A stretch of DNA of 64,000 nucleotides from an uncultured delta proteobacterium (GTDB taxonomy: Bacteria > Desulfobacterota > Binatia > UBA9968), in assembly GCA_963771465.1 (NCBI GenBank), contig CAVYTU010000009.1, positions 64,001-128,000 of the forward strand, written 5' to 3'. Position numbers and translations under genes: made by a program. This document shows, piece after piece, positions 12,368 through 45,256 of the stretch (position 1 is its first letter; each line of letters starts with the position of its first letter). Below the pieces are notes generated by a model. That model was not told the origin of the DNA and ran no database searches. It saw nothing but the letters and a program-made list of their open reading frames with translations.

Positions 12368-12406
12368 ATAAGGGAAATCGTATAAAGAAATCAGTAAAAC
12401 CCTGAT
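12368..12406 (+). promoter_or_regulatory. 17-bp palindromic operator plus upstream secondary site
   Basis: ATCAGTAAAACCCTGAT at 12390-12406 and ATAAGGGAAATCGTATA 22 bp upstream. Confidence 0.65.
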
Positions 12407-12550
12407 AGTCGGCAAAGGTGAGTCTGTTAGAGATAGATAGGAGAAAAAGGTTGTTTAAATTAACGGATACTTCCACCGCTGTGCAACTCGCATCAAGCGG
12501 TAGGCGCAACGATCTCCGGCGAATGGGGATCAGAAAAGGACAGGAGAACG

Positions 12551-12958
12551 ATGAAGGTAAGATACCTAGGGAGGGGCGTTGGCCTCGCATCGGCCGCCTT
12601 GCTGGTCGCCCTTGGCACCGCCAGCGCTGACCAGTGGTTCGTGATGGGCGAGAAGCCGGTCAAGTCCACGGATCCAAACGCGGAGATCAAGGCTGAAGCG
12701 GGGAAGTTTTGGAAGGAAGACATCAAGAAGACGAAGGTCACGGTCGAGGGCGCTGACGTGGAGCTCACGAAGGTCGTCCTCCGCTGGAAGGGTCGTAAGG
12801 ACGACACCATCACGAATGTCGGAGTCGTGAAGTCGGGAGGATCAACGGCTGAGAAGGACGCTCCAGGACGCGAGGCGACCCTCACGTCGGTCGCGGTCCA
12901 GTACAAGATCCTCGATAATAAACCGACGGCCACCCTCAAAGTTTGGGGATACGACTGA
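12551..12958 (+). CDS. Secreted beta-rich hypothetical protein
   Basis: CAGGAG RBS, signal peptide ending ASA-D, GC-biased third codon positions. Confidence 0.75.
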   Translation: MKVRYLGRGVGLASAALLVALGTASADQWFVMGEKPVKSTDPNAEIKAEAGKFWKEDIKKTKVTVEGADVELTKVVLRWKGRKDDTITNVGVVKSGGSTAEKDAPGREATLTSVAVQYKILDNKPTATLKVWGYD

Positions 12959-13246
12959 GCAGGGTGTAAACCACCGACCAGCGGACATGTAGCCGCGATC
13001 AACGCGCCGAAGGCGAGGCGATCAAGGCTCATGTTTGCTGGAGTCGAACACGGCCGCCGCGTTCACGTCCGACGGACATGGCTGGCGAGGCTTCGGGAGA
13101 ACGCAGACCGCGCGTGCGCGTTTGACTTATTGGGGCGCCCGCATGCTCAGCAAGCGGCATCCTTTTTTTTGACTGCAAATAGAGTTATGGTCCTATGACT
13201 GTGTTTTAGCTATCGCGATAAAGATCAGCATGACAGCGGTGACATT

Positions 13247-14869
13247 ATGCGGATTTTTCTTATCCATATACGCGACCCCCAGTTCTATGCTCTACCGGCG
13301 GCGACCCGCGCAAAGAACGGCAATATACGCGTGATGGGTTTCCCGCCGATCGGGATTATGTCGCTTTCCGCGGTGGTCAAACGCGCCGGGCACGAGTGCG
13401 TGATGTTTGATCAGGCCAATCCGGAGACACCGAATGAGGTCATTGTTGACGAGATTCGCAGACAACAACCCGACCTGGTCGGGTTGAGTTTTTTGAGCAC
13501 GACGAGTTACCCGTACGCCAAGATCCTCGCCCGTCAAATTCGCGCCGCCGATTCCCGTATCCGCTTGGCCTTTGGCGGCGTGTTTGCCACGTTGAACGCC
13601 GAACTCGTCAAGCAGCAGTGTCCAGAGGTGAATTTCGTCTGCCGCGGCGACGGCGAACAGCTGATCCTCGATTTGCTCGAAAGATTGGATGATCCTGACG
13701 ACGTCGCGGGTCTCACTTGGGAAAAAGATGGCCGCGCCGTTCACAACCCGAATCGTGCGCTGGATCGCGACCTTGATCAATGGCCGTTTCCGGACCGAGA
13801 GAGCCTACCTTTGGATTTTGTCGAGTCGATGCCCCTCGATGTGCCTGCGGTGCTGTCGATGGAGCGCTTCACCACGATGCAGACTTCGCGTGGATGTCCG
13901 TGGCCGTGCGTTTTTTGCGATATCCCGATCTTCAATGAAGGCAAGTGGCGCTCACGCAGCCCCCAGCACGTTGTCGACGAGTTCAAGCACTTGCAGTCGC
14001 TGGATTATGGCGCGGTCTATTTTGTCGACGATCATTTTCTCCTCCAACCGAAGCGTATCGAGGCGATCTGCAAGGGCATCAACGACAACGGAATCAACAT
14101 CCAATGGGGCTGCGAGGGTCGCGTGGATTCCACCGCGCAGCACCTTTTTCCAGCCATGGCGAAAGCCCATTGTCGCACGCTGATGTTCGGGATCGAGAGC
14201 GGCAGCCAGAAAGTACTCGATCGATTAAGGAAAGATCAAACGCTGGAGCAGGTCGAGGTAGCGGTCAACAGGGCCAAGCAAGCCGGAATCGAGATCGTTC
14301 ATGGTTTTTTTGTCGTCGGCAATCCAGACGAAACCGTCGAAGATATACGCGCGACGTTCGACTTTGCGGCCAAACTCCGGTTGGACACGTTCGGATTTAA
14401 CCGGCTGTGCGTTTACCGCGGTACGCCGCTGTGGAAGGAGTACGTGGGACGCGGCTTGGTCGACGATGCGAAGGACTGGTTCAAGTACTTTAAATGCTCG
14501 GAGATCGATCCGACCTGCCTGCCGGGTCCGGTAATCAACGCCGAACGTAGCGCCGGATTCCGCAAAATATTCCGCCACAAATTAACCCACTATCCGATGC
14601 AGACGCTTCGATTGCTGCGGCGCTTCATGCGTCACATGCCGCTTCGCGATGTCGTCTACCTCATTATTAAACCCTTCCTCGGACAAAAGCAGGGGCCGAC
14701 CAAGAACGAGATGCTTTCGCGTGCCGTCGAGCATCGCGCGCTCAAAGATGCGGCGGCGAAGTTCACGACGCTCCCCGATGAATTGCTAGCCGACGAGAAT
14801 CGGAGACCATTATCCAGAGATGTAGTCCATGCAGCGGAGCGAAGAATTCTAGGTGAGAGATCGATTTGA
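13247..14869 (+). CDS. Cobalamin-binding radical SAM protein
   Basis: N-terminal B12-binding-like domain (PPIGIMSL...GG...RGDGE), TSRGCPWPCVFC, GIESGSQ. Confidence 0.92.
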   Translation: MRIFLIHIRDPQFYALPAATRAKNGNIRVMGFPPIGIMSLSAVVKRAGHECVMFDQANPETPNEVIVDEIRRQQPDLVGLSFLSTTSYPYAKILARQIRAADSRIRLAFGGVFATLNAELVKQQCPEVNFVCRGDGEQLILDLLERLDDPDDVAGLTWEKDGRAVHNPNRALDRDLDQWPFPDRESLPLDFVESMPLDVPAVLSMERFTTMQTSRGCPWPCVFCDIPIFNEGKWRSRSPQHVVDEFKHLQSLDYGAVYFVDDHFLLQPKRIEAICKGINDNGINIQWGCEGRVDSTAQHLFPAMAKAHCRTLMFGIESGSQKVLDRLRKDQTLEQVEVAVNRAKQAGIEIVHGFFVVGNPDETVEDIRATFDFAAKLRLDTFGFNRLCVYRGTPLWKEYVGRGLVDDAKDWFKYFKCSEIDPTCLPGPVINAERSAGFRKIFRHKLTHYPMQTLRLLRRFMRHMPLRDVVYLIIKPFLGQKQGPTKNEMLSRAVEHRALKDAAAKFTTLPDELLADENRRPLSRDVVHAAERRILGERSI

Positions 14870-15134
14870 TCGGCCATCTGAAGGACAATCATTTGCCTCA
14901 CCCCTTTTGCTTGCTCAACGCACATCCAGCAGCCAGCGCAATCCAATCCCGCCAGCCACGAGGATTGCTGATTCTCGTAGCACACATAACCACTGAAAAA
15001 AACATTTTCCGACTTTGCCATTATTTTGCCAGAAGAAAAATCGGCAATAATTCGAATGCGGTCACGTCTGACAGAACGAATCGGGGCAAACTATAAAATC
15101 TCCGGCTATATCGACAATGCGATGAAAGCGCTTC

Positions 15135-15910: not shown

Positions 15911-15930
15911 ATTGGACCAAAGTCCAATAG
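15911..15930. promoter_or_regulatory. Palindrome ATTGGAC-CAAA-GTCCAAT, copy 1
   Basis: Identical 20-mer at 45341-45360. Confidence 0.55.
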
Positions 15931-18242: not shown

Positions 18243-18280
18243 CTAAGTAAATTCTTAATAAATATCAGGGCGACCCTGAT
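18243..18280 (+). promoter_or_regulatory. 17-bp palindromic operator plus upstream secondary site
   Basis: Perfect ATCAGGG-CGA-CCCTGAT at 18264-18280; CTAAGTAAATTCTTAAT 21 bp upstream. Confidence 0.7.
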
Positions 18281-18388: not shown

Positions 18389-19002
18389 ATGAGGACAAGA
18401 TATCAGTGGGACAACAGCATGTTACCGATCCTCGGAATGGCGTTCCTTCTGACCGCGTGCAGCGCCACAGTCAACTGGGATTACCCTCGCAATCCGTCAA
18501 ATACTTTCGCAAATCCGGAAACCACCACCGTCGGTGCGCTGTTTCAGGAAGCGGCCGACAAACATCCGGGAGTATCCGGCTTCTCTCTTATTCGGCAAGG
18601 CGGTCAGGCGTTTATGGCTCGGCTGGCGATGGCCGACTTAGCCGAAAAGACCTTGGACGGGCAGTACTACATCTGGGATGGCGACACCACCGGCCTGATT
18701 TTGGCCGACCATCTGCTGCGCGCCGCGGACCGCGGCGTCCGTGTCGATCGCAGGCCCTCAACACCGAGATCGGCGTGATGATCGACAGTCCAGAGATTGC
18801 CAGCCAGGTGGCAGAGTTGATGGATGAAGGGGTCGCCCCCGGCAGCGCCTTTCACGTCACCCTCGACAAGAACGATAATCTGCTGTGGACCAATGAGTAT
18901 AAAGACTCAAAAGTCGTGTACGACACAGACCCCGACACAAACTTCTTTTATCGGTTTATCGTTAGCGTCATCGGCATGCTGCCGATTGAGGACCAGCTAT
19001 AG
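18389..19002 (+). pseudogene. Phospholipase D / ClsC-like lipoprotein with a large internal deletion
   Basis: N-terminal LTAC lipobox...QYYIWDGDTTG...AADRGVRV joined out of frame to C-terminal RSQALNTEIG...LPIEDQL; no HKD motif remains. Confidence 0.8.
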
Positions 19003-19218
19003 AGGAGGCTGAGGCGGTGGCTGGAATCTTTACCAAAGAGACGATGAACAATCTTGCCGCGACGCTTCTGCTTTAGAACGCATCGGCATGAGGACTGCGT
19101 ATTGAGGTTGTTTCAAGTCGTTGTGGCATTTGACACGTTATAAAAATGGCCGTTTATACGACTTCGGGCTCGTACATCTTCAGCCCTTATGGCTGGACTC
19201 AGGTATTTAGAAGCCCAA

Positions 19219-19235
19219 ATTGGGTAAATCCCGAT
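19219..19235 (+). promoter_or_regulatory. 17-bp palindromic operator variant
   Basis: ATTGGGTAAATCCCGAT upstream of the gene at 19374. Confidence 0.5.
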
Positions 19236-19373: not shown

Positions 19374-19955
19374 ATGAAAACCTTCGGGATGATACTGACC
19401 GCGGTCATGCTGCTTGTGGGGCTAACATCCGTGACGATTGCGCAACAGAAAGACAGCGATGACAAGAGCGCAAAGCCTAGTCGAGTTACTGTAGGCGTGG
19501 TCAAATTGACCGGCACGGTTAAAGCCGTTGATCTTGAAAAGAAAACCGCCACCGTCGAAGGATCGGGTGGTCGAGTGGTCACAGTGGATGCGAAGAATGC
19601 GAGAAATCTGGACCAGGTCAAAATAGGGGACAAAGTGAATCTTACGTATACGCAGGAGCGCGCCGTGTTCGTAAGAAAAACCGACGAGCCACCCAGCGCA
19701 GCAGAGGCACGATCGGTGCAGCTAGCACCCAAGGGTGAAAAACCGGGCGGAGTCATTGTCCAGACGATCGAGCTGAGTGGCAGCGTAGAATCGGTCGATC
19801 CCCAGAAGCACCTGATTGTATTGAAGGGTCCTGCCGGCAACGTGAGAACCTTTACGGTCGACCCTGGCGTGAAGAATCTCAGTCAAATCAAGAAAGGCGA
19901 TCAGGTCGTTTTGAGATTCACTGAAAGCGTAGCCCTCAGCGTTGTGAAGCCCTGA
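19374..19955 (+). CDS. Secreted protein with two OB-fold-like repeats
   Basis: TAAGGAG RBS, signal peptide; repeated G.V..VD...NL.Q.K.GD.V. Confidence 0.8.
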   Translation: MKTFGMILTAVMLLVGLTSVTIAQQKDSDDKSAKPSRVTVGVVKLTGTVKAVDLEKKTATVEGSGGRVVTVDAKNARNLDQVKIGDKVNLTYTQERAVFVRKTDEPPSAAEARSVQLAPKGEKPGGVIVQTIELSGSVESVDPQKHLIVLKGPAGNVRTFTVDPGVKNLSQIKKGDQVVLRFTESVALSVVKP

Positions 19956-20181: not shown

Positions 20182-20502
20182 TCATGTTGAATTATTAAGC
20201 CGGGCGCTACCCTTTTGAGTCATGCGGTGAGGCAGACCAAGTTCTTGAGCCGTGTCGTTATCAATCTTTCCAGTTACATTCAGTTGCCTTGATTCTTGGA
20301 ACGACCGCAACGCCTCACGTGTGCGCTCATTCATTGTCCCGTCCACTGGTCCTGAATAAAAACCATTCTGCCTCAAAAGCTGCTGCGCTTCGGCATATTT
20401 GAAGCTTCGACATCTGATCAACGCTGATGCCGGAGATCGACCGACGGATCGAGTCGACGAAACTCGGCGCCCCAGCGGAACAACACATCGATCTGCACTC
20501 AT
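20182..20502 (-). pseudogene. Peptidoglycan-binding domain protein fragment
   Basis: AQQLLRQNGFYSGPVDGTMNERTREALRSFQ...LNVTGKID; no credible N-terminus. Confidence 0.55.
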
Positions 20503-20585: not shown

Positions 20586-20625
20586 ATCGGGTGTTCCCTG
20601 ATTTTGCGTCCGTTTTTTTCCTTAG
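20586..20625 (-). promoter_or_regulatory. 17-bp palindromic operator plus secondary site
   Basis: ATCGGGTGTTCCCTGAT at 20586-20602, followed by GCGTCC...TTCCTTAG. Confidence 0.55.
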
Positions 20626-22830: not shown

Positions 22831-25800
22831 TCAGGACAATAGTGTCGCCGCTGTCGCCATAGAAGATAGCAAGGTAACTAAGTGTCTTTTAATGCGTGAA
22901 ACCATTTTTACTACTGCTCCGCTGCGAATGATTATTCTTTCACGGGCAGGTCTCTGAAGGGCCAGCTTCCTCATGCGGGAACGTAACGTGTTGGGATGCA
23001 GCCCTAAAATCACCGCCGCCCCCTTCGGCCCCTCAATCCGCCAACTCGTTTGATGCAAGACCTCTAGAATATGGGCTTTCTCTAGTTCGGCCAACGTTGC
23101 CTCTCGTTCGGCAGTGATCGTCTCTGGGATTGAAGTTGGTTTGCCGTTCGAACTCAGCCCCGTGGCACGGTCAATCACATGCTTACCTTCCATCCTTCGG
23201 GCAGTTGGAGGGTTGAGCCGGTGGAAGTGACGGCCGCTCGGCCGATCACATTCTCCAACTCGCGCACGTTGCCGGGCCAACTGTAACCCCGCAACGCTCC
23301 GATCACTGGAGTCGGTATCTGTGCCAAAACTCTTCCCCAACCGCCGCCCAGATTCCTGTATAAAATACCTCTGCCAATAACCCAATATCCTCTGTGCGTT
23401 CCCTGAGCGGCGGTATCTCGAATCGGATAAACATTCAACCGATAGTATAAGTCGGTGCGAAATCTGCCGCGCTGCGCCGCTTCGCTCAGATTGCGGTTGG
23501 TCGCCGCTATTACCCGCACGTCCACCTTGATCGTCTTACCGCTCCCCAACCGCTCAAACTCTCCCTCCTGCAATACCCTCAACAACTTCGACTGCAGCCG
23601 CAACGGCAATTCGCCGACCTCGTCCAAAAATATCGTCCCATGATCGGCCAACTCAAACCGTCCCACCTGCTTGGATACCGCCCCCGTAAATGCTCCCCGC
23701 TCGTGCCCAAACAATTCACTCTCGATCAGCTCCGCCGGCAACGCCGAACAGTTCACCTTCACCAACGGCCGCTCCCGCCGCCTGCTCTTCTCGTGTACCG
23801 CGCGCGCGACCAACTCCTTGCCCGTCCCCGTCTCGCCCAATACGAACACCGTCATGTCGGTCCCGGCTACCTGCTCCACTTGTTGCAATACCTGACCGAT
23901 CCCTTGGCTCTCCCCGATGATCTCCCCATACCGGTGTGATCCCATCACTTCGGATCGCAAATACACGTTCTCGGCTTCCAACCGCTCCTTGAGCCGCTGC
24001 ACCTCCGCCAACGCATCCTTCAATTCCTCCTCCGCTCGCTTGCGATCGGTAATGTCGCGACCGACTCCCTGGATTTCAACGACACGTCCATCTGAATCAA
24101 CCAGCAAGTGATTAGTCCAACAATGCCAACCTACACTACCGTCCGGTCTGGTAACCTCGTGCTCGTGCTCGCTTGTCGTCGTCTCGGTATTTCTGCAGAG
24201 CATTTCAATATGTTCGAGGACGGCCTTCCGCGCGCTGAGCGGAATGAGCTCCAAAAATTTTTTACCGATAAGCTGCTCGCGGGTTCTACCGAAATAACGG
24301 CAGTAAGCATCATTGACGAAGGTCAGCGTGGTGTCCGGCAAATTACGGCAAATCAGCTCGGTTTGCGTTTCCACGACATTGCGATATCTGTCTTCGCTCT
24401 TACTCAAAGCTTCCTGTACCAGCTTAAGCTCGGTGATGTCGATTACCGAGCCGATGTAACCTAAAAATTCACCTTCATTATTGAATCGCGGCGATCCTGT
24501 GTCGAGCACCGTCCGGTATTGCCCGTCATAGCGTCGAAGCCGGTAATCAACGCAAAACGTCTCGCGCTTTTGGACCGCGGCCCCAACGAATTTTTTAGTC
24601 GCCTCTCGATCGTCCGGGTGGATGCTGGCGAGCCAACCGAAACCGAGTTGTTCTTCGAAAACCGTCCCCGTAAATTCAGTCCATTGTCTGTTTACGTAGG
24701 TGCACCGACCCGAAGTATCGTTGAGCCAAATGATTGTGGGAACGTAATCGGCTATGTAACGGAAGCGGGCTTCGCTTTCCCGCAGCGCCTCCTCGATGCG
24801 TTTGCGTGCGGTGATATCTGTGACAATACCGCCGGTCGCACAAGCATTCCCGGCGACATCGAACATCGCAAACTTGTAAACAACACTGGTGTGGGGTCCG
24901 TCAGCGTGAACTGCAGTTTCCTCAAATTGCGACGCCGTCCCGGATTGGAGCACCGTAAGATCGTTGGCGCGAAACGCAAGGGCTTGTTCATGGGGAAATA
25001 AGTCGAAATCGGTCCTTCCGACGATGTCTTCACGCGACAAACGCAAAAGGGTCTTGAAACGCGAGTTGGTATATAGGTAGCGTCCTTCCCGGTCCTTAAG
25101 AAAGATGATGGCAGGGCAATTGTCCATGATCGTCTTGAGCAATGTCTGATTTTCACGCAGTGATTGCTCGGCGTTTTTGCTCTCTGTAATGTCGCGCACC
25201 ATGGTGAGAATTCGGTCGTCGTCGTAGTGAATCATGCGAGCTTCAAAATGGCGCGTTTGTTCTTTCACCGGCAGAGAAAATTCGTGAATCACCGGCTCAC
25301 CGGACTCAGCCGCACGTTTGAAGCATTTCAAAAAGGCGTCAACAAGCTGAGCAGGAAGCACTTCGCTCATGTTCTTGCCGAGAAAGTCGTCCGGCCATAG
25401 CAAGAGGTCTCGCTCGGCTTTGAAATGACAATCGACGTAGACGCCTGCGATCGTCTGGATAAACATGACGTCGGGCAAGGCGTCCAGAATTGCGTGGTTC
25501 TTGGCAGCACTCATACTTGCCAAGCTATAAGCGTGTAAGAGCTCTATGCATTGCCGTTCGTTAGTCGACTCCGCTCGCTTTCTACGTCGATGTTGTACCA
25601 GAAGCGCGACAACGAGCAACGTCTCCAGTACAAATAGAGCAGCAACGCCGAGAATTTGCCGGTGATATTCCTCCCAAAGGGTAGGTCGGCGAAATTGGAC
25701 GATAGTGTCCGGCGGTAAGAACTTTTCGTTCAGACCCCAGCGCTTGATCTGCCGCCAATCGACTGTTGGTATGGTCGGCACCGGAGGTTCCACGCGTATC

Positions 25801-26807
25801 TTGTCGGGATCTTCACCTGCAAGAATCCGCGCGACCAGCTTCCCTACCCGTTGCGCATTATCATCGAAATTTGTCATCGCGCCACCGACAATGCCCAATC
25901 CCATGAAGCTCTCGAAGAAGCTATAAACGGGTGCGGCGGATACGCTCGTCAGTTGGGTCAACACGTCGCGCGGTATCGTTGTTCGTCCGGCCGCATCTTG
26001 GAACATTGAAGTGTACAAAACGACCGTGTTGCCGGGCAGGTTGCTTACCGTCTTAAGAATTTCCGGCAACGAATGATTGGTGAGATAGGTGATTTTTGCC
26101 TGCCCTTTGAGCGAACGCAGAGCGTTTTGCACCAGCGGAATCCATGATTGATCGGTCTCGGTCACCCCGCTGACTACCACAACGCGGCTGGCGTTTGGCT
26201 GCAAACTAAACGCCATTCTCAAAGTGCCGGCAAAATCGATTTTCCCGGTTACTCCAGTCATGCGACGACCGAGTGAGCGTTTGCGCATCGAATCCTCGGA
26301 GACACCGAAGAATACGACCGCCGCTTCGGGCCACAACTGCGCTCGGTGCTTAGTAACGAAATCTAGTGCCGGCGGCTGTACTGTCATGACGATATCGAAT
26401 TTCCGATCGCGGTATTTTTGCTGAAGCAGGGCGGCAAAAACGGATTCATAACTCGGATTGGAGAGATGGGAGGCGTCGAAGGCTTCCGAGTCAAAATCGA
26501 TAGGATGTGGCGCCGCGGCGGAAACCGTCTCACGAACCATGCGCTCGACAATCACATTGGCCGGAAGGAGCGTGTTTGTGCCATGTAAAATCAGCACGCG
26601 GTGAGGTGTCTTCTCTGCCTGCGCGTTCGCGCCAATGACGAGCCAGAGTATGCCGATCATGAGGGCAATAGGCAGGCGGGTAAGTTTCGCTTTGGCGACA
26701 AACTCCATCATGAATTGCGAGACCTCGGAATCGAACGTCAATGGAAATATCACATCTCGCGCTTTCATCTCTACCATTGGTGATGATGCAGTTTCAAATC
26801 TAATCAA
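22831..26807 (-). pseudogene. Membrane-anchored multi-PAS sigma54-dependent activator, frameshifted in the AAA+/HTH junction
   Basis: Extracytoplasmic domain, TM helix, about 4 [17 protein letters not shown]. The frame breaks after YRLNVYPI and the HTH ([17 protein letters not shown]) lies in another frame. Confidence 0.85.
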
Positions 26808-27773: not shown

Positions 27774-27812
27774 TATCAGGAATTCCTTATCGGCAGATTC
27801 GAAATTCCTTAG
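27774..27812 (-). promoter_or_regulatory. Operator pair variant with no intact downstream gene
   Basis: TATCAGGAATTCCTTAT and GATTCGAAATTCCTTAG, 22 bp apart. Confidence 0.45.
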
Positions 27813-28907: not shown

Positions 28908-28946
28908 ATTGGGAAATCCCTTATTTGAAGCGTCGATTTTCCTGAG
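28908..28946 (-). promoter_or_regulatory. 17-bp operator plus secondary site upstream of the ompA-family gene
   Basis: ATTGGGAAATCCCTTAT and GCGTCGATTTTCCTGAG, 22 bp apart. Confidence 0.6.
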
Positions 28947-29030: not shown

Positions 29031-29708
29031 TTAAAGCGAAGTCAATCCTTCGCGGATGCAATATTTTGTCAGGCCGGCGGTGGATCGAATACCGAGCTTG
29101 TCCATGACCTGCTTGCGGTGTGTCTCTATCGTTTTAACACTTACTTCGAGAGTCGCCGCGATCTCCTTTGTCGAGTTACCGTCCGCGATCAGTTGCAAGA
29201 CCTGCAGTTCTCTTCTGGTCAGCCGTTGCGCATTGACAAGGTTTTTTAGTGAAAGATCGGCTGCTTCGTTCTTCAACGTAACTGCGGTCGATATTGAAGG
29301 ACTCAAATACATTCCACCTTGGGATACCGCTTCCAACGCCGCGGCGAGGTCCTCCAAAGCGGAATCTTTGAGGAGATATGCGGACGCGCCGGCTTGCAGC
29401 AGTTGGAGCACGTAGCTGCGAGTCGCATGCATGGAAAGTACAACGACCTCGATTTCCGGCTGCGCGGATTTAATCTGCCGCGTAGCATCGATACCGTTGA
29501 GATTCGGTAACATGATATCCATGATGACGATGTCCGGATGCAATTCTTTGGCTTGTCTCACCGCCTCGTATCCGTCATTTGCTTCTGCGACACATTCATA
29601 TCCGAGTTTTTCTTCAAGCAATGCCCGGAGCCCCTCGCGCATCATCTTATGGTCTTCCGCAATGAGAATGCGCCTTCCGGCGGAATTTTTTTTGGGCGGT
29701 TTATCCAT
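29031..29708 (-). CDS. NarL/LuxR-family response regulator
   Basis: ILIAEDH...IMDIMLP...LTRRELQVLQLIADGNSTKEIA...KTIETHR. Confidence 0.95.
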   Translation of the reverse strand: MDKPPKKNSAGRRILIAEDHKMMREGLRALLEEKLGYECVAEANDGYEAVRQAKELHPDIVIMDIMLPNLNGIDATRQIKSAQPEIEVVVLSMHATRSYVLQLLQAGASAYLLKDSALEDLAAALEAVSQGGMYLSPSISTAVTLKNEAADLSLKNLVNAQRLTRRELQVLQLIADGNSTKEIAATLEVSVKTIETHRKQVMDKLGIRSTAGLTKYCIREGLTSL

Positions 29709-29808
29709 GTCAGGGCAAACCAAGCTAAATATTTTCCGACCTATGGGCCTGGGATACGCATAGATTGCTGCCTCAGATCGTGATTCACACGAACGAAAGG
29801 AAAACGCT

Positions 29809-29847
29809 ACCGGGAATTCTCTGATTTTTCGCGTCGAATTTTCTTAG
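29809..29847 (-). promoter_or_regulatory. 17-bp operator plus secondary site upstream of the second response regulator
   Basis: ACCGGGAATTCTCTGAT and GCGTCGAATTTTCTTAG, 22 bp apart. Confidence 0.6.
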
Positions 29848-29869: not shown

Positions 29870-30517
29870 CTACTGGATCGATGTGATTCCTTCGCGGATT
29901 GCAAATTTTGTCAGTTGGGGGATATTGGGCAGTTTCAATCGATCCATAATTTGTCGGCGGTGGGTTTCGACAGTTTTAATGCTGACGTAAAGATTGGCTG
30001 CGATTTCTTTAGTGGACTTCCCCTCTGCGACGAGTTGTAATACTTCGCGTTCTCGATTGGATATTTTGGGGAGTTGACATTGCGACTCTGACAGCCACTG
30101 CGCAACTGCTCTTCCGACCACGACCTCGGCAACGTCGGGCCCAACGTATTTTCGCCCTGCCAAAACTACCTTTAGCGCGTTGCTGATCTCCTCAACACCC
30201 GAGTCTTTGAGCAAATATCCGGAGGCGCCGGCTGCAAACGAGTCCAGGATGCAACGGCTCTCAGTGTGCATAGAGACGACTAAAACTTTAACATGAGAAA
30301 ATTCCCGATGTATTTGCCCAGTAAGCTCGATCCCGTTGCGCCCTGCCATGCTAACGTCCGTTATGACAGCTTCGGGTTTTAGTTTTGCAATCAGCCTTAA
30401 CGCCTCGCGACCATCGTCTGCCTCACCCACAATTTGGAAATCCTCTTTCTCGAGCATGGGCTTTAGGCAGGCTCGGAACAGACGGTGATCATCTGCTAGA
30501 ATGATTCTCGGTCGCAT
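29870..30517 (-). CDS. NarL/LuxR-family response regulator
   Basis: IILADDH...ITDVSM...ISNREREVLQLVAEGKSTKEIA. Confidence 0.95.
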   Translation of the reverse strand: MRPRIILADDHRLFRACLKPMLEKEDFQIVGEADDGREALRLIAKLKPEAVITDVSMAGRNGIELTGQIHREFSHVKVLVVSMHTESRCILDSFAAGASGYLLKDSGVEEISNALKVVLAGRKYVGPDVAEVVVGRAVAQWLSESQCQLPKISNREREVLQLVAEGKSTKEIAANLYVSIKTVETHRRQIMDRLKLPNIPQLTKFAIREGITSIQ

Positions 30518-30521
30518 AACA

Positions 30522-31352
30522 CTAAGTAACATTGATGATTGGCAAAGTAATGCACCCTTTGGTGCCATTACCGATATGAGAAAAAATACGCAGATCTCCG
30601 CCGAGGGACGCAAGGTCTGCGCGTACACTAAACAGTCCAAACCTACCGGTGCTCAGGTCGGAAAGAACAGTCTTGTGATGATCAAAGCCCCGGCCATCGT
30701 CGCATACTTCGATTGAAAGCGACCCCACTTTACGCGTCACGACGATTTCGATCCGGGAGGCCTGAGCATGCTTGATCACATTGAAAAGGAGCTCTCGCAC
30801 GGCGCGAAAAAGAATTTGCTGGACTTCGTCTTTCAACTGTTTGGGGACTAAATCGAGTCTGGCCGTGCAAGTCAGCCCGTGTTTCTTTTGAAGCTCTTCT
30901 ATTAACGACTGCAAAGCGGTTCTGAGCCCAGTTTCGCAAAGATATTGGGGGCACAAATCAGCGATGACCGTTCGCGTACGGCGAATCAGGCCGGTGATAA
31001 TTTCCCCAATTCCTTCGACAGAAGCGCGGTCCTGCGGAGGCAGCCTGATCATGAGCTCCGCTAGCCGCATTTTTGCAACCACAAGATCCTGGCCGAACTC
31101 GTCATGTAGCTGCTCGGCAACCTTTTGTCTTTCCTTCTCTTTCACGCGAGAAAGTTCGCGTGCCAGGGTTTTGAGCGCCTCCTCGTAGTTCGCGACATAG
31201 GTTACTGCCTCGCCTGGCTTGGTTGATGAAGTTTTACTGAACCGGCCGAATGCCCCGAACCGATCATTGGGATCCTTGTCAATAAGAGCCGTTCCGAGAG
31301 AACAGGCCGGGTCTGAATTTGACCAATTCAATGGTCTAACTTTTATATTCAT
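30522..31352 (-). CDS. Soluble HisKA_3-type histidine kinase with no recognisable sensor domain
   Basis: ERQKVAEQLHDEFGQ, ELLFNVIKHA, DDGRGF, FGLFSVR; start uncertain. Confidence 0.88.
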   Translation of the reverse strand: MNIKVRPLNWSNSDPACSLGTALIDKDPNDRFGAFGRFSKTSSTKPGEAVTYVANYEEALKTLARELSRVKEKERQKVAEQLHDEFGQDLVVAKMRLAELMIRLPPQDRASVEGIGEIITGLIRRTRTVIADLCPQYLCETGLRTALQSLIEELQKKHGLTCTARLDLVPKQLKDEVQQILFRAVRELLFNVIKHAQASRIEIVVTRKVGSLSIEVCDDGRGFDHHKTVLSDLSTGRFGLFSVRADLASLGGDLRIFSHIGNGTKGCITLPIINVT

Positions 31353-31365
31353 GCCAATAGACAAG

Positions 31366-31382
31366 CGCAATTTTAATACCAG
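31366..31382 (-). promoter_or_regulatory. Candidate sigma54 -24/-12 promoter
   Basis: Minus strand CTGGTATTAAAATTGCG = GG-N10-GC, ending TTGC. Confidence 0.55.
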
Positions 31383-31655: not shown

Positions 31656-34600
31656 TTATTTCGTGGTTTCGACTGAATTTCGTAGTTTCGGCGCTTTTGT
31701 GATACCAAGTTTCCGAAGACGTGAGCGCAGTGTATTAGGATGCAGGCCCAAAATCATTGCCGCCCCCTTCGGCCCTTCAATCCGCCAGTTTGTCTGATCG
31801 AGAACCTCCAGGATTCGCGTCCGCTCGAATTGCTCCAGCGTGGGCATCGATTGTGGGCTTTCGCTTCGCAAGCTCAATGGCTCCGGTATTGTCTTCAAAG
31901 GTGTAGATGACAGTCCTGTAACCGGAGCTTTGTTCCATCCCTCGGGCAGTTGGAGGGCTGCAGCAGTGGAAAGGACCGCCGCTCTGCTGATCACGTTCTC
32001 CAGTTCCCGCACGTTGCCAGGCCAACTATAGGCGCGCAACGCTTCGATTACCTCATTCGGTATCTTTCCAAAGCTCTTCCCCAACCGCCGCGTGGCTTCG
32101 TTTAAAAATACCTCGGACAATAAGCCGATGTCGCCTCTTCTGTCTCGCAGCGGAGGAAGCTCGATCGGATAAACATTCAACCGATAGTATAAATCGGCAC
32201 GAAAGCGCCCGCGCTGCGCCGCTTCACTCAAATTGCGGTTGGTCGCCGCGATCATCCGCACATCGACTTTGATCGTCTTGCCGCTCCCCAGTCGCTCAAA
32301 CTCGCCCTCTTGCAGTACCCTTAATAGTTTTGACTGCAGGCGCAACGGAACCTCGCCCACCTCGTCGAGAAAGATCGTCCCTCCGTCAGCTAACTCGAAG
32401 CGCCCTACTTGCTTCGATACCGCTCCGGTAAATGCTCCGCGCTCGTGCCCAAACAATTCACTTTCGATCAATTCCGCAGGCAAGGTCGAACAGTTCACCT
32501 TGACCAACGGCCGTTCGCTGCGTGCGCTCTTCTCGTGCACCAGGCGCGCTACCAATTCTTTTCCCGTTCCCGTCTCCCCCAGAATCAAAACCGTCATATC
32601 GGTTGGCGCTACCCGGTCTACTTGCTCGAAAACCTTTTGGATCCCTTCGCTCGCCCCGATTATCTCTCCATAACGGTGGACTCCCGATACCTCGGACCGC
32701 AAATACACATTCTCCACTTCCAACTGCTCTTTTAACCGCTTGACTTCCGATAGTGCCTCCTCTAAATCCTGTTCCGCACGCTTACGGTCGGAGATGTCGT
32801 GAGAGATGGCGACCAGCGCGATGATGTCCCCATCCTTACTTCGTAGTGGCGCAGCGTGTGACTCCATCCAACGGCGTTTTCCCTTAAGTCCGATGATTTC
32901 AAACTGCGCCACTGCGCTTTCTCCCCGGCAAACTCGGCGATGCAAATTTTCATAGGTAGCATGCCACTCCGGCACTATAATCGCCATGACGGACTGGCCC
33001 ACGACTTGCCTTAAACAATCGGCCTCGATCATAGCCAATCCAGCCGGATTCATATCCAGTAACCGGTAATCCGGAGCCACGAGTTTCACACACACCGGCT
33101 GCGACTCGAAAATCGCACGCCGCAGACCTTCGCTTTCCCGCAACGCCTCCTCGGCTCGCTTGCGCTCGGTGATGTCTCGAATGTAGCTTAGACAGTGTAT
33201 AGGATTGTCTTTTGCGTCGGTGACGATCGAAACATTAACGTAAACCCAAACGATCCCTCCATCCTTACGAATGTAGCGTTTCTCTATGTCGAAGGATTTG
33301 ATTTCACCCCGCAGGACCCGTAATCGCTGTTCCACATTGCCCTTGAGATCATCGGGATGTGTCAATTCGTGAAAGCGGCGCCCCAATAATTCCCTTTCCG
33401 TATAACCGAGCAGCTTGCACAATGTGGGTGGCACCTTAAGCCAACGACCTTCCAAGTCTGTATGCGTCACCATCACTAGCGAAAATTCTTCCGTCCGAGC
33501 TAAACGGCCTTCGGTCTCGCGCAACGCTTCTTCGGCGCGCTTGCGCTCAGTGATGTCCAGTAAGACGCCCATCCTGTGCCCGTCGTGGCGGCCACGCTCG
33601 ACGACGGTCCGTCCCTTGGCTAACACCCACCGCTCTGTCCCCCCGGGGAGAACGGTACGAAACTCTCCCTGAAACGGCTGGCCAATCGCGGCCGTGCGCT
33701 CGATTTCAGACTGCATACGGGTCCGATCATCTGGATGTACTCGGGCAAGCATCTCATCGTATCGAAGCCGATCAGTTGGGCCGAAGCCAAACAGAGAACG
33801 CGCAGGCGCGTTAGCCGCTAAATCGCCGTTTCTCAAATCACGCGACCACAGCCCCAACTCGGCGCCGCTGGTAGCGAGTTCCATCAATTGCTGGCTCTCC
33901 TGCAGCTTCGTTTTGACATAGCTCACGCGGCGGCGCTGCAAAAACAAATTGGCAATAATTGCGCTCTGAGCCAATATGATGAGCCCACCGAGAATGTACC
34001 ATCGATATTGTTCCCATAGTGATTCCGGCCGAAATCGAACAACGCTATTAGCAGGCAACCGACCTTCGCTGATGTTCCACCGCTTCAAAGCCCGCCCATC
34101 GAATGTTGGCACGCTGTCGGTGCGAATTTCGAAAGGCAGCGCCACCGGCAATGTGCCGGTTAAAATCAGACGCGCCATTTCGCCTGCCCGTTTGCCAAAA
34201 GCCTCGACACTTGCCAATGAGCCACCCACGGCGCCCGTGCCAAAACTAGCATCCGTCATTACATAGACCGGCACATTAGCCGACCGACCAATCCACTGGC
34301 CCACCTCAGAGGAAATAAAAGCCTGACTTGCGGCGTCAAGAAACATCCGAGCGAACAGAATCGCGCTGCCCGGTGGTAGCATCGTTACTGATTGACGCAA
34401 TTCGGCCATGGTAAGGTTGTCCCAGAAAGCGATTTCGACACGGCCCTTTATCGACTGCGCTGCGTCCTTAACGCGCTGGAGTACCTGCCGATCGATTTCC
34501 GCCGTACCGCCGATGACGACGACACGCCGCAGTTCGGGTTGCAGGCGGAGGATCAATTCCAGCGTCGCGCGCGGATTGATACGCTGCGCCACGCCGCTGA

Positions 34601-35195
34601 CCAGAGTGCCGAATTGATCGGCTCGAAACTCCTCTTCTGTGAGGCCGGCGACGATAATCGGGGTTCGCGGAAACAGTTCACGCAGTAGCTGGCCGGGAGT
34701 TCCCAAGGTCCCGACGTAAACGAGGATCACGAGGTCGGGAGGATTTGCAGCGTATTTCCCAGTCAAATACTCTCTGAAAATTTTTCCATAATGTGCGCTC
34801 GGAAAGCGAGCCAGATCGAGATTCTCGGCGTAGGTTTCGACAGGGACCGATGGGATGTTCGCCAACGCCTGCAGCAACGGCTGATCGACGAGTATGAATC
34901 CCGGCGCAAGGCGGCTTCCCATCGAAATAATCAACACGCGCTTTGGCCGCAGCAATTCTGCGCCGCTCACCGTGGTTACGGAAGCGAAAGAAAAGAGAGC
35001 TGAGAGCGCTAGCCCGAGTAGTAGACTTAAACGTCTCACTTGGGTTCCTGGCAGAGCTAACTCTTTGGTGCGGTTACTCCGCCCAGATAAAAAATCACAT
35101 CCGGCCAGAAAAGCCAAGTGTTGACTACGCAATCTGACTATACACTTTATAATTGTTTTATTGACCGCCCGCTGGACCCGACAAAATGAGCGCAA
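31656..35195 (-). CDS. Membrane-anchored multi-PAS sigma54-dependent activator (intact paralogue)
   Basis: Signal/TM segment, extracytoplasmic domain, TM ([16 protein letters not shown]), 3 [25 protein letters not shown], Fis-type HTH. True start is probably downstream of 35195. Confidence 0.92.
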
Positions 35196-35717: not shown

Positions 35718-36245
35718 TCAATACGGCGGATTGACCACGACGTACTGCGATCCCTGGGGCTGATACCAGGTGCTTCCGCATTGTTGATAGACCATGCCAC
35801 CATAGTTCACCGGCACGCAGCTTGGCGGCACGCTTCGCACCATCGAGCCGACGACGGCGGAAGTCACGGCGACGGCAGTGCCAACCGCCGCTGCAGCCGC
35901 GACCGGATGGTAGTCATTGTCCCAGCCGCCACAGCAACCGCCATGACCTTCGACATTGACGTTGACGTCGCGGTCGACGTTGACGTTATTGACGCTAGTG
36001 CTGCGGACATTGTTGGTACGGGCATCAGCCTTGCTGTTGTCGACCTGCGCACTCTGCCTGGTGGCGCCGCCACCGGCGCCTGCGGCGCGAGCACCGCCAC
36101 CACCGCCGCCTGCGGCGCGAGCACCACCACCCCCACCGCCGCCGCCCCGAGCCGCGGCGGCATCAGCGTAAGGGGCTATGGCGAAGCTGGCGAGAACGAG
36201 AGCGGCCAACGAGGCCGGAAGCAACTTACCGAATGATCTCTTCAT
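35718..36245 (-). CDS. Secreted Gly-rich hypothetical protein
   Basis: Signal peptide, GGGGARAA repeats, NVNV repeats, C-terminal C...YQQCGSTWYQP. Confidence 0.8.
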   Translation of the reverse strand: MKRSFGKLLPASLAALVLASFAIAPYADAAAARGGGGGGGGARAAGGGGGGARAAGAGGGATRQSAQVDNSKADARTNNVRSTSVNNVNVDRDVNVNVEGHGGCCGGWDNDYHPVAAAAAVGTAVAVTSAVVGSMVRSVPPSCVPVNYGGMVYQQCGSTWYQPQGSQYVVVNPPY

Positions 36246-36257: not shown

Positions 36258-37007
36258 CTACTTTGTTTTCACCGGAACAATCTCGATCCTGGACGCACCC
36301 TTGGGCGGCGTGAACTTGAAAACCGTGTCCTTGAAGGTAGGTTTCAAATTCCAGTCGATCAGGGAAACCGACTGCGGGCGCGCTTCGTCGGTGCGACTGG
36401 TGATCACGACCTTGCGTGGCAGCGGCCTGCTCCCGGTGGTAATCCAGATCTGCCAGTCGGCCTTGGCCTGCCGGAAGGCGTAGTGGTCACAGAGATCGTC
36501 GCCGACGAAATCCTGGCCGGCATTCATTGCCGATTCGATCTTGTCGACTGGCGCGGCTGGGGTACCCCAGAGGAAGAGATCCGCCAACGGGAGTTCCACA
36601 CCGTACCTTTCCTCCAGCCGCTCGATCAGTTTGCCGATCGTGTCGGTGAATTCGACCGTCGAGTAATACTTTTGCGCCGGCGTATAGAGTGTGACCGTCT
36701 TGCCGTCGTAGACGAGCTCGCGTTCGGAACGGGCGCTATGCATCAGGGCGCGGATCTTGTTCGGACGCTCGACATCCATATCGGCCGTCGCCGTATGCTG
36801 CAGCTTTTGGCCATCGGCCAGAACGCGCTCACCGGTTAGTTCGGTCGACACCCGAAAGCGCTTCAGTGTCTGAAAGAACGCACCCATGTCCTTGAGGGCC
36901 TGAATCGACGCCGGATCGACAGCACTCGCCGGCGCAGTCTGCGCATAGGTGCTCGGTGTCGCAAGCGACATTGCCAGCACGCTGAGCACCAGAATCTTTC
37001 GTACCAT
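36258..37007 (-). CDS. DUF2092-family periplasmic protein (LolA-like)
   Basis: DGQKLQ...RPNKIR...YDGKTVTLY...LPLADL...CDHYAFRQ..DWQIWI...LPRK. Confidence 0.85.
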   Translation of the reverse strand: MVRKILVLSVLAMSLATPSTYAQTAPASAVDPASIQALKDMGAFFQTLKRFRVSTELTGERVLADGQKLQHTATADMDVERPNKIRALMHSARSERELVYDGKTVTLYTPAQKYYSTVEFTDTIGKLIERLEERYGVELPLADLFLWGTPAAPVDKIESAMNAGQDFVGDDLCDHYAFRQAKADWQIWITTGSRPLPRKVVITSRTDEARPQSVSLIDWNLKPTFKDTVFKFTPPKGASRIEIVPVKTK

Positions 37008-37205: not shown

Positions 37206-37244
37206 ATCAGGGTAGCCCTGATTTTCTGTGTCGAGTCTCCCGAT
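37206..37244 (-). promoter_or_regulatory. 17-bp operator plus secondary site upstream of the DUF2092 operon
   Basis: Perfect ATCAGGG-TAG-CCCTGAT and GTGTCGAGTCTCCCGAT, 22 bp apart. Confidence 0.7.
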
Positions 37245-37555: not shown

Positions 37556-37680
37556 GCCGAGACTAAGGGAAAGCGTATCAAGGATCAGTAGAGCCCCGGT
37601 GTTCAGCAAAGAGTGAGTCCGTTAAACTTGGAACCATGAGTTATAAAGATAGATCAGAAAAAAAGGTTGTTTAAATTTCC
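37556..37680 (+). promoter_or_regulatory. Promoter region homologous to 12361-12461, containing an operator pair
   Basis: GCCGAGACTAAGGGAAAGCGTATCAAGGATCAGTAGAGCCCCGGT...GATAGATCAGAAAAAAAGGTTGTTTAAAT aligns with 12361-12461. Confidence 0.7.
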
Positions 37681-37700: not shown

Positions 37701-38256
37701 ATGTCCAAATGGAGATTCCCCCAGTAGACCACGATGACGTTCATCGCCATGATGTTGCTTGCCGGTTGCGTCTCGCAACAAAAAGTATGACTCGCTGGAC
37801 GCAGAATATCAGCAACTCAACCATACAATGTCGGCGGAGGTCGCCACCAACCAGATGCAGATCACGCGATTGCAAAACGCCGTTAAGGTCACGGTCAACA
37901 GTGAGCTGCTGTTTCCCTCGGGCGACTGGCAAATGTCGGTTGAAGCGCAGCAGACCATCGGCAAAATCGTTCCGATCCTAGCCCCCAACCAGCAAACCAA
38001 GATTAAGGTGAACGGCTATACCGACAATGTCCCGATCGGCCCGGGGCTCATGCGCGAGGGCATCACCAGCAATCAGGTGCTGTCCCAGAAGCGGGCCGAC
38101 AACGTGATGCAGTTCATGATCTCGCGGGGCGTCAACCCCAGCCTGGTGTCCGCGCAGGGTTTAGGCGAGACAGACCCCATGGCCTCGAACGACACGCCGG
38201 AGGGCCGGGCGAAGAACCGGCGGGTGGAACTGACCGTGGCTGGTTCGGGCAACTGA
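37701..38256 (+). pseudogene. OmpA/MotB-family lipoprotein with a damaged 5' end
   Basis: MSKWRFPQ*...MLLAGCVSQQK, then an A-run frameshift; LLFPSG...GYTDNVP...LSQKRA...NRRVEL intact. Confidence 0.8.
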
Positions 38257-38444
38257 GCTAGGCGGCCTTGGCTGGTCGCCGCGAGCAGCCGTCAATCAGG
38301 CCTCACAGGAGCAAACGTCCTCATCCCGAGTTCGGCATGACTCTGCATCTGGTCACGCACGCTATGGAGGGAGTGCTGTGAAGATTATCAGCTTGCCGCT
38401 GTTGTTCGTGCCGGTGGCCGTGGCCTTGGAACATCTGGCATCCG
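38203..38444 (+). repeat. ~240-bp direct repeat, copy 1 (ompA/motB 3' end, spacer, 5' stub of a Ca2+/H+ antiporter-like gene)
   Basis: Aligns by eye at roughly 90% identity to 44004-44243. Confidence 0.92.
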
Positions 38445-43864: not shown

Positions 43865-44003
43865 GCCATCTGTCCCTTATCGGTTATTGGTCATGACAAG
43901 CACTGAAAAGTATATATCCCTTTGTATCTGCAAGGGAAGCTGCCGACAATTCACCTTTGGTTTCCCATTCTTGCCATGCAATAGAGCACTTCACTTACAG
44001 GAC

Positions 44004-44243
44004 GGCCGGGCGAAGAACCGGCGCGTGGAACTGACGGTGGCTGGTTCGGGCAACTGAATCAGGCGGCCTTGGCTGGTCGCCGCGAGCAGCTCAATCCGGC
44101 CTCACAGGAGAAAACGTCCTCATCCTGAGCTCGGCATGACCCTGCATCTGGTCACGCACGCTATGGAAGGAGTCCTGTGAAGATTATCAGCTTAGCGCTG
44201 TTGTTCGTGCCGGTGGCCGTGGCCCCGGAACATCTGGCATCCG
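44004..44243 (+). repeat. ~240-bp direct repeat, copy 2
   Basis: Matches 38203-38444; similarity ends at ...GAACATCTGGCATCCG. Confidence 0.92.
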
Positions 44244-44548
44244 AAGTTGTCAATCAATTTTCGTTCGCGTTCATCCCAATATACCTGGTCAGTATATATA
44301 GTGCCAATATACCTGCACAGAACAGGTTAATTCATTACCGATGAGCCGGACTACGAACCACTCTATTTTGTCGTAGGATTGAACTGAACGACGCTTCAAT
44401 TTCATCTCACAGGATTTGTATGGAAGATAACGTTCAACTATAAGGTGAGCGTATCGGGTGAGCGCCGCCAGCGTTCCAGAAGTCGTGGGATGGGAAGCGG
44501 CATCACCGCGCACATTAGGTTAACAGTGATTCGACGAAGTCTGCAAAG

Positions 44549-44734
44549 ATGAGACTAATCGGAAAAGTTTGTCCACGTTGCGGAAAGCCTGGATCGGTGC
44601 TCTATATGACGAAAGAGCGAATTGTCTATCAGTGTCCAAGCGAACATCAGTACGAAACTAGGTTCAGCAAATTCAGTATCGCTACACCGCAACCTGCTTC
44701 TCAAGAAAACAAACCAGATCGTATCTTGACATAG
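44549..44734 (+). CDS. Small Zn-ribbon-like hypothetical protein
   Basis: CPRC...CPSEH. Confidence 0.4.
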   Translation: MRLIGKVCPRCGKPGSVLYMTKERIVYQCPSEHQYETRFSKFSIATPQPASQENKPDRILT

Positions 44735-45239
44735 GCGTCCTTCTCTTGCCTGGCCGTCGTCTTCCGTCAGATTGACAATCCTCGCGTCGGGTTGGATTTA
44801 TCCGTCACTGTTAAAGAGCTTGTCACTTGGTTCGTCATCAACCATGAGTGCGAGTCTATCATTTCGATACCGAGTCAGAACTTGCTTGGTATTTGGCTTG
44901 CCTGGAATGTGGGGCTAATGAGCCATTAGGTGTCGTCAAAAAATCCCAACGACCTAAAGCTCTCTCCGAAAAATACTCAGCGCAGAACGCCACAACGTGA
45001 TAAAGGAAGGACTGGCTTTGTACTGCCGATGAAAGTCCCGTAGCCATCGTTATATTTAGTGGTTCGCTCAGGCTTGTCCGATGACTATCCGAACGGCCAG
45101 CGTTCTGTGGCGAGCGAGATTATTATTCGCATCCTGGCTGCAATCGGATTCCCCGGGTCGCGACCTATGAATGCGTGGTCACTCCGTCCGATAGGCCGCA
45201 TTCCCATTTTCTTTCTTCTAAGAAGATAATGATGCCGAT

Positions 45240-45256
45240 TTCAGGGATTTCCTGAT
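45240..45256 (+). promoter_or_regulatory. 17-bp operator variant
   Basis: TTCAGGGATTTCCTGAT. Confidence 0.55.

Follow-up and report, generated by a model that had tools for sequence, protein, structure and literature searches.

A two-part DNA element upstream of envelope-protein genes in an uncultured Binatia bacterium and its association with NarL/LuxR-type response regulators

The stretch of DNA considered here, referred to as the window, comprises 64,000 nucleotides (C9:64001-128000; contig CAVYTU010000009.1) of an uncultured Binatia genome from soil, G000, which amounts to 6.9 Mb in 19 contigs. Between about kb 12 and 46 the window carries ten copies of a two-part element, a palindrome accompanied by a weaker block, each placed ahead of a gene or the remnant of one, and in the midst of this cluster lie the genes of a histidine kinase and of two response regulators of the NarL/LuxR type, RR2 and RR1. 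Computation established what the motif is, that it is enriched, how it is oriented and spaced, that it keeps a fixed distance to a −10-like hexamer and that it co-occurs with the regulator; the element is probably the operator of these two regulators.

Composite sites, target genes and regulators in the window

The proximal element of all ten window sites is a 17-bp palindrome, ATCRGGR-N3-YCCYGAT. The weaker distal block, CTAAGGAAAnTCGAM (CTAAGGAAA followed by nTCGAC, with TTCGAA at this place in relatives), is of the YTMRG type, lies on the gene-distal side and begins 21-23 bp upstream of the palindrome start in 10/10 sites; the order distal block, palindrome, gene is fixed at all of them, and the target gene begins 55-200 bp past the palindrome. 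Alignment of 44 sites from this genome and others (A2) gives the consensus nnCTAAGGAAATTCGAAnnnnAnAATCAGGGAAnnCCCGATnG, and throughout this alignment the start-to-start spacing of 21-23 bp holds and the distal block is less conserved than the palindrome. In the ten window sites as in the 44 aligned sites, one strong and one weak box are paired in the same helical phase, which is the arrangement that defines tandem boxes. A preliminary description of this DNA had listed ten palindromes, and all ten coordinates hold the motif, although the one at 27774, while present, had been placed one base off and is a variant with 16-bp spacing. The weaker site that it placed two helical turns away on the gene-distal side was recovered at every palindrome, and the sequence given for it, GYGTCGAnnTTCCYKAK, is the reverse complement of the distal block.

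In the list that follows, mismatches are counted against the palindrome consensus ATCAGGGNNNCCCTGAT; leave-one-out scores derive from position weight matrices (PWMs) trained without the site under test, with 13.8 million positions scored genome-wide, and E values from a sequence profile, R1, built from the 44 aligned sites, all ten window sites included.

12368..12406, + strand: composite site, distal block from 12368, palindrome 12390-12406; 2 mismatches; leave-one-out 24.3 bits, 0 outside positions as high
12551-12958: target of the 12390 site, exported protein, weakly DUF2541-like; intact
18243..18280, + strand: composite site with a perfect palindrome, 18264-18280
18389-18778: target of the 18264 site, relic of a PLD-like lipoprotein gene with an internal deletion, only the first 118 residues align
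19198..19235, + strand: weak composite site, palindrome at 19219; 5 mismatches; leave-one-out 16.5 bits, 33 outside positions as high; R1 E 8.6e-5
19374-19955: target of the 19219 site, exported protein with weak CusF/TOBE-like matches; intact
20586..20625, − strand: composite site with a spacing of 23; 2 mismatches
20182-20502: gene after the 20586 site, fragment of a PG_binding_1 domain
27774..27812, − strand: weak composite site with the 16-bp palindrome variant ATAAGGAATTCCTGAT; leave-one-out 13.1 bits; R1 E 0.00135
Frame with a frameshift near 27540: gene after the 27774 site, small lipoprotein
28908..28946, − strand: composite site just downstream of RR1; 4 mismatches
28097-28809: target of the 28908 site, gene of a glycine-rich OmpA-C lipoprotein, frameshifted once near 28438, in a CCG repeat
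29809..29847, − strand: composite site between the RR2 and RR1 genes, preceding RR1; 4 mismatches; best R1 match of the genome, E 3.2e-6
37206..37244, − strand: composite site with a perfect palindrome; orthologue L017:11434
36258-37007: target of the 37206 site, DUF2092, LolA-like, with a signal peptide; intact
35718-36245: probably a further target of the 37206 site
37563..37600, + strand: weak composite site, palindrome at 37584; 4 mismatches; R1 E 0.037; paralogue of the 12390 and C13:443807 sites
37734-38256: target of the 37584 site, OmpA-C lipoprotein gene with a frameshift at five consecutive A (near 37790)
45218..45256, + strand: composite site, palindrome at 45240; 2 mismatches
45456-45548: target of the 45240 site, truncated CusF/TOBE-like copy with the signal peptide alone kept

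The regulatory genes in the middle of the cluster and the features beside them are as follows.

29031..29723, − strand: RR1, 230-aa response regulator with REC and GerE (LuxR-type helix-turn-helix) domains (Response_reg 7e-31, GerE 1.6e-18); candidate binder, itself behind a putative operator
29870..30517, − strand: RR2, 215-aa response regulator with REC and GerE domains (Response_reg 1e-25, GerE 1e-18); 42% identical to RR1
30522..31352 (or to 31370), − strand: histidine kinase with HisKA_3 and HATPase_c domains, about 277 aa, no recognisable sensor domain
31366..31381, − strand: TGGTAT-N5-TTGCG, a sigma-54-type promoter preceding the kinase gene and the one good example of its kind in the region
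31656..35195, − strand: sigma-54 enhancer-binding protein with PAS domains, AAA+ and HTH_8; presumed activator of the kinase-RR2 operon
31658-31688, − strand: tandem AAACYACGAAAT (AAACCACGAAAT/AAACTACGAAAT) at the end of the activator gene; candidate activator binding site

Intact targets in the window are 12551-12958, 19374-19955, 36258-37007 and RR1. Several sites have orthologues in relatives: in G018 that of the 18264 site (L016:10502) precedes an intact 319-aa PLD-like gene and that of the 20586 site an aquaporin gene, in G017 that of the 27774 site (L027:4742) combines a perfect 17-bp palindrome with an 89-aa lipoprotein gene, that of the 45240 site (L017:7713) precedes an intact 191-aa gene, and the position and target of the 28908 site recur in G018 (L015:11992, 236 aa, OmpA) and G066 (L028:10691). 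A site before the second regulator gene, as proposed in the preliminary description, is that at 29809, and it has been kept before RR1 in all five relatives which possess the pair (G017, G018, G019, G003 and G066). Intact paralogues of the PLD-like, OmpA lipoprotein and DUF2541-like genes, together with an aquaporin (MIP) gene, stand without a composite site at C12:39351-44476, C19:145415-146122 and C19:15224-15628, and the PLD-like gene on C12 has a 5' leader in common with the truncated copy in the window. Targets in relatives encompass aquaporin, LysM, DUF937 with PG_binding, HAD, FGE-sulfatase, sulfatases, SBP_bac_3 and a SnoaL-like exported protein, with adjoining lysozyme inhibitors. Judged from their domains, the common denominator of the targets appears to be export to the envelope, and the set presumably resembles the osmotic and envelope-stress genes of E. 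coli (osmB, aqpZ, yiaD and ygaU, under RcsB or RpoS). 'Envelope remodelling', the term used initially, is therefore a fair label for the products, while the function itself is deduced from domains only. The idea that the whole accessory region forms one regulon had to be abandoned, because only ten promoters carry the site, and radical-SAM, DUF3047, MlaC-like, GT2, CDP-alcohol transferase and other genes between them are without one.

Four public sequencing runs were compared as contigs only, so that starts, strands and expression levels are unreadable from them. Contigs of three runs show single-base differences from the window at numerous positions, for example 20586, 23366 and 23419, so that assembly errors or strain differences may account for some frameshifts; none of the listed contigs reaches across the one near 28438. 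Behind 20586, in the gene-proximal end of the palindrome, contigs of runs X1, X4 and X15 hold one extra T, and the G018 orthologue agrees with the window.

Specificity and promoter position of the motif

At up to 3 mismatches the window holds 9 matches to the consensus against 2.07 +/- 1.47 expected, and 0/100 shuffles reach 9. Allowing up to 2 mismatches, the consensus occurs at 16 places in the whole genome, six of these 16 lying within kb 12-46 of the window, and both perfect palindromes of the genome (18264 and 37206) are found there as well. One of the six, at 22640, is a chance match, given its location in coding DNA (inside a glycosyltransferase gene), the lack of a distal block and its duplication as coding DNA at C9:141523. 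In the leave-one-out analysis, no more than 2 positions outside the region score as high as or higher than the site under test for 7/10 sites; the weak ones are 19219, 37584 and 27774, with 33, 34 and 262 outside positions, respectively, scoring equally high. A search of G000 with R1 at E < 0.05 returned 12 matches, that is, the ten window sites, C11:5965 and C13:443807 (10/12 within 33 kb), and the next-best match has an E of 1.66. The ten window sites match R1 by construction, being training rows, and the gap to the background and the two extra sites are independent of training. Independent support for C11:5965 comes from its target, a 166-aa protein with an orthologue behind a site in G066 (L028:17534). 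The housekeeping and catabolic blocks of the window hold no match, as the preliminary description had also noted. The 12 promoters, mostly of small exported or lipoprotein genes, make up the predicted regulon of this genome.

The promoter region was analysed in 33 Binatia sites, after setting aside the sites from other phyla and the near-identical orthologues of window sites (L024:2830, L027:2807, L015:3875, L016:10502, L017:6574, L017:7713 and L017:11434). A TAnnnT hexamer begins exactly 22 nt past the palindrome in 12/33 sites, and offsets of 16-23 account for 17/33, the other 8-nt bins holding 0-3 each. These −10-like hexamers are mostly of the form TAGnnT. The −35 position is poor in 30/33 sites, at least four of the six letters of TTGACA being present in the remaining 3/33. 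If the hexamer is the −10 element, the palindrome would span about −51 to −35 (centre −43) and the centre of the distal block would fall near −65, which appears to be how activator-dependent promoters with tandem boxes are laid out. The two blocks were also considered as the promoter of an alternative sigma factor, a reading rejected by inspection as the spacings misfit (29 nt from GGGAA to −10).

Further elements and relics lie beside the sites. The element AGAAAAAAGGTKGTTTAAAT, which has no match in Rfam, is located 41-146 nt downstream of four composite sites, within the presumed 5' leaders (window 12447, 37663 and, on the − strand, 37046, and C13:443908). The genome has 6 copies of a perfect 18-bp palindrome, ATTGGACCAAAGTCCAAT, which may serve a different regulator as operator; among them, those at window 15911-15928 and 45341-45358 lie ahead of the DUF3047 gene and in the stretch from the 45240 site to its relic gene, respectively. 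A 93% identical duplication (38199-38444 and 44000-44243) takes in the OmpA gene's 3' end along with DNA downstream of it and constitutes a further relic in the island, and no tRNA genes that could serve as island borders were found in the window. In the pyrimidine block, an unusual 654-aa frame (7060-9024, − strand) fuses the catalytic domains of aspartate carbamoyltransferase (OTCace_N, OTCace) to the regulatory-chain zinc domain (PyrI_C) and a phosphoribosyltransferase domain.

The regulators and their occurrence with the site

RR2 starts 4 nt past the kinase stop, and the gene order kinase-RR2-RR1 is also found in G018 and G066. The nearest named relative of the genome is a metagenome-assembled genome (MAG) of a 'Candidatus Binatia bacterium' (85% identity on RR1). 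RR1 and RR2 have near-identical recognition helices, and the helix KT[VI]E[TS]HR[KR]Q[VI]M is common to both and to the single regulators of other phyla aligned with them (alignment A1). The phospho-acceptor D69, like S97 and K119, varies little or not at all in A1, and both RR1 and RR2 have these positions. In the tree, for which a midpoint root was used for drawing only, RR1 and RR2 form sister clades (support 99/98) and the single regulators stand outside them, which suggests a duplication within Binatia. The best solved relatives of RR1 are VraR (E 3e-33) and NarL (E 1e-27); the match to DevR has an E of 2.3e-21. When compared to the NCBIfam equivalogs MctR, NarL, UvrY/GacA, NarP, MadR, EvgA, UhpA, RcsB and FixJ, the response regulator scored below every cut-off (MctR, the best, 191.3 vs 300 bits; NarL 138.5 vs 250; RcsB 82.9 vs 235).

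The kinase gene is in turn linked to sigma-54. TGGCAC/TGGCAT-N5-TTGC[GT] promoters precede the kinase or RR2 gene in three of four relatives, namely G018 (L015), G066 (L028) and G003 (L019), and none is present in G019 (L013); genome-wide, the sigma-54 promoter pattern occurs 55 times in G000 as compared to 11 for a reversed control. The tandem AAACCACGAAAT/AAACTACGAAAT recurs at the same place in G018 and G066, its layout is partly retained in G003, and it is not enriched across the window. Sigma-54 most likely acts one tier above the two-component system, since the ten site promoters have no −24/−12 element and a sigma-54 promoter and a candidate activator site lie by the kinase gene. The preliminary description, of which the regulon account stands in its core, overlooked this tier; a further correction to it is that half of the local targets are damaged. 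A contig from the RNA library of run X15 ends at 31364, beside the sigma-54 promoter, and the X1 DNA contig runs on; both come from one study, and the coincidence does not count as evidence. A second sigma-54 activator is encoded in the open reading frame 23175-26807 (− strand), in which HTH_8 is not in frame; homology to the other activator runs on to 22964 (repeat families D1, D5, D6 and D12). Contigs of X1, X4 and X15 are one base short at 23366 and at 23419 in this region, and the disruption of HTH_8 reflects either strain frameshifts or assembly errors.

In order to see whether the site follows the regulator, 123 genomes of the order were searched with R1 at E 0.01 or better. Sites were found in 24 of them, all in one family (G000 and 23 of its 89 other members, against 0/5 and 0/28 in the other two families). 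Relatives of RR1 at an identity of at least 56% are encoded in 16/123 genomes, and all 16 carry sites, 1 to 21 per genome, vs 8/107 of the other genomes (15/15 without the unpublished genome G005, which is included among the 16). Composite sites surround the orthologous regulator pair in G017, G018, G019 and G003 and also cluster at the pair in G066, where contig C32 holds ten sites within about 40 kb of it. In G014 and G020, whose regulator is 58% identical, a PWM scan of 40 kb and 24 kb around the regulator gave nothing of at least 20 bits, and R1 gave one site each within 3 kb.

The association extends beyond the order. For RR1 the genome collection returned 80 loci, 14 of which encode a relative at 46% identity or more; 10/14 have a composite match of at least 20 bits, and three more (L033, L035 and L037) have their best match, of 17.8-18.4 bits, at the same syntenic place. 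Two of the other 66 loci (957 kb) reach 20 bits, which gives 13/14 vs 2/66 overall. The gene order in these phyla is a 400-aa HisKA_3 kinase, a single NarL-type regulator, the site about 60 bp past the regulator stop, amt (TIGR00836, 401 bits) and a Gcw_chp porin-like gene, and the hosts are Ignavibacteria, Zixibacteria, Gemmatimonadetes and unclassified MAGs. We know of no NarL-type system in front of amt. This cassette is found at L029:8719-12857 and also at L054, L055, L033, L035, L036, L037 and L032, often beside cytochrome bd and malic enzyme genes. As the site is found in other genomes wherever this type of response regulator occurs, it is very probably the regulator's binding site. The notion, put forward in the preliminary description, that a regulon is run by the local NarL/LuxR-type pair gains support from the 16/16 vs 8/107 contrast, the clustering, the cross-phylum synteny and the spacing and orientation of the sites.

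Interpretation and comparison with known systems

Taken together, the two-part element is probably the operator of RR2 and RR1. One regulator dimer would occupy the 17-bp palindrome near −43, abutting the poor −35, a second dimer would bind two turns of the helix further upstream, at the weaker distal block near −65, and both would recruit RNA polymerase to promoters which have a −10 alone (TAGnnT type). This would amount to class-II-type activation by tandem boxes, as in DevR/DosR. The circuit may be a feed-forward cascade, in which the sigma-54 activator turns on the kinase and RR2, and these in turn RR1 and the targets. We infer binding, activation rather than repression, cooperativity of the boxes, the cascade and the physiological signal.

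Several observations weigh against this interpretation. The PWMs and the profile were trained on the sites they recovered, a circularity escaped only by the leave-one-out and other-genome searches. Genomes of the same family are kin, and the 16/16 vs 8/107 contrast overstates their independence, for which reason no P value is attached to it. Eight genomes bear sites and have no close RR1 relative. Among these is G077, of 98% completeness, in which no relative of RR1 reaches E 1e-45; it holds the two best-scoring sites outside the window's genus (C2:2923156 and C5:515269, L107 and L108, 35.9 and 34.6 bits), both ahead of genes for small exported proteins, one SnoaL-like and the other followed by an MliC/LprI gene. 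A homologue of the sigma-54 activator is syntenic with the regulator pair in G018, G066, G003 and G019, and within the Binatia family synteny cannot separate the response regulator from this activator since both are syntenic. About half of the ten window targets are truncated or frameshifted, so that the circuit may be decaying here, if the damage is not due to single-base assembly errors. TTCGAA/TCGAC, at the right of the distal block, is conserved yet unlike a half-site. The placement at −43 and −65, finally, rests on the TAnnnT pattern, and the 33 sites behind it include orthologues and are not independent.

A wider account, which we offer tentatively and consider doubtful, is that of an old, portable cassette of kinase, regulator and operator, shared across phyla and acting on amt, which in Binatia was duplicated and rewired to a three-tier cascade, its regulon being packed as a patchy 'regulon island' and TTCGAA being read in a way unknown for the NarL family, for example by an RR1:RR2 pair or by the alpha subunit of the polymerase.

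One explanation that retains the regulator as the binding protein is that it represses, the palindrome at −35 blocking RNA polymerase until the regulator leaves. The palindrome does end at about −35, a place also used by repressors, but a −35 as poor as that of 30/33 promoters is typical of activator-dependent promoters, and NarL-family regulators centred near −42 are activators in the cases known to us. The weaker second box upstream in helical phase is, moreover, the layout of tandem-box activators (PMC3177182). Repression is thus an unlikely alternative to activation by RR2 and RR1. It is more improbable still that another transcription factor, encoded away from the sites, binds the motif and that the link to the response regulators merely reflects the history of the island. 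Such a factor would account for the eight genomes with sites and no close RR1 relative, and linkage can be inherited within one family. However, the link holds across phyla in which kinase, regulator and site alone are common and the target (amt) differs, and the geometry of the palindrome fits a GerE-type dimer.

The 17-bp 6-N5-6 geometry and the tandem sites could also be those of upstream activating sequences of a local sigma-54 enhancer-binding protein. The region encodes two such activators, with the synteny in four relatives described above, and the genome is rich in sigma-54 promoters. Against this, 0/10 promoters have a −24/−12 element between the site and the start codon on the gene strand, the sole match (28790) lying inside signal-peptide codons, and the sites instead hold a fixed distance to a −10-like hexamer. 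The same site is present in 10 loci of other phyla, and a protein with the GAFTGA motif was found in 0/10 of these cross-phylum site-bearing loci. The activator has, in addition, its own candidate site and a sigma-54 promoter before the kinase gene, and we regard this explanation as very improbable. Across the window 46 TGGCAC-N5-TTGCA-like sites were counted, none of them serving a composite-site promoter, and the reading was rejected on this count too. Least probable of all is that the palindromes act as RNA hairpins, either terminators or structures in 5' leaders, or that they stem from a small repeat element, for although a terminator scan lists 37206-37222 with a T-rich tail and 12390, 37584 and C13:443807 have longer flanks in common, the letters rather than the pairing are conserved (44 sites: 77.3% of cells paired vs 76.2% in column shuffles, 84/500 as high; covariation score 0.122 vs 0.110, 106/500 as high; pair 31-41 unpaired in 28/44), Rfam gives no match, and outside one paralogous trio no repeat family covers the sites, a repeat search having taken in a single paralogous pair of them.

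With RR2 and RR1 as the probable binders, the locus would be an envelope regulon of the stress type that sigma-54 connects to a two-component feed-forward loop. In the uncultured Binatia (Binatota), sequence alone is enough to read the motif, the spacing, the promoter position and the regulator, as well as the target sets in 24 genomes. The locus also offers a useful case of a conserved regulator-operator pair with a replaced regulon, ammonium uptake genes being the predicted targets in three other phyla. A full-text literature search revealed, by title, neither a published operator of this motif tied to a response regulator nor literature on a regulon in Binatia/Binatota.

Like NarL, VraR/LiaR and RcsB, the regulators combine REC and GerE domains and are accompanied by a HisKA_3 kinase. 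NarL and its relatives just named use inverted-repeat sites, and VraR, LiaR and RcsB control envelope-stress genes; to our knowledge, the half-site ATCRGG has not been reported for regulators of these types. In the DevR-dependent tgs1 promoter the primary box is centred at −42.5 and the secondary one at −63.5, and promoters of the DevR regulon have at least two boxes each, with the secondary box poorly conserved and cooperative binding abolished by insertion of half a helical turn (PMC3177182). In a cryo-electron microscopy structure (PMC13486717), the DosR dimer contacts sigma region 4 and the alpha subunit. The present system resembles DevR/DosR of M. tuberculosis in its NarL-family regulator, in the palindromic primary box with a weaker secondary box in helical phase, in having no promoter with fewer than two boxes, and in the inclusion of the regulator's own gene in the regulon. 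It differs in its motif, as the Dev box is given there as an 18-bp motif with G5 and C7 in each half, and in sequence RR1 is not nearer to DevR than it is to VraR or NarL. The targets here are predicted exported envelope proteins and not dormancy genes, and the system has a tandem pair of paralogous regulators below a probable sigma-54 tier.

In the BldM-WhiI system of Streptomyces a homodimer is said to bind a palindrome and a heterodimer a hybrid site. The likeness to the present case lies in the two paralogous NarL/FixJ-type regulators and in a palindrome beside a second site with only one half resembling a half-site. However, both site types are here found at every promoter, the recognition helices are near-identical and phyla with a single regulator have the same distal block, which argues against a half-site specific to a heterodimer. 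A hybrid RR1:RR2 site was considered on the same grounds and is not supported, as the helices are near-identical and the single-regulator phyla keep the same distal block. BldM and WhiI are the subject of PMC4125116. Conceptually, a NarL-family tandem-box regulon as proposed here is within what NarL-family regulators are known to do, and its extra interest lies in the uncultured class, in a regulon packed beside its regulators, and in the reuse of the same operator before amt genes in other phyla.

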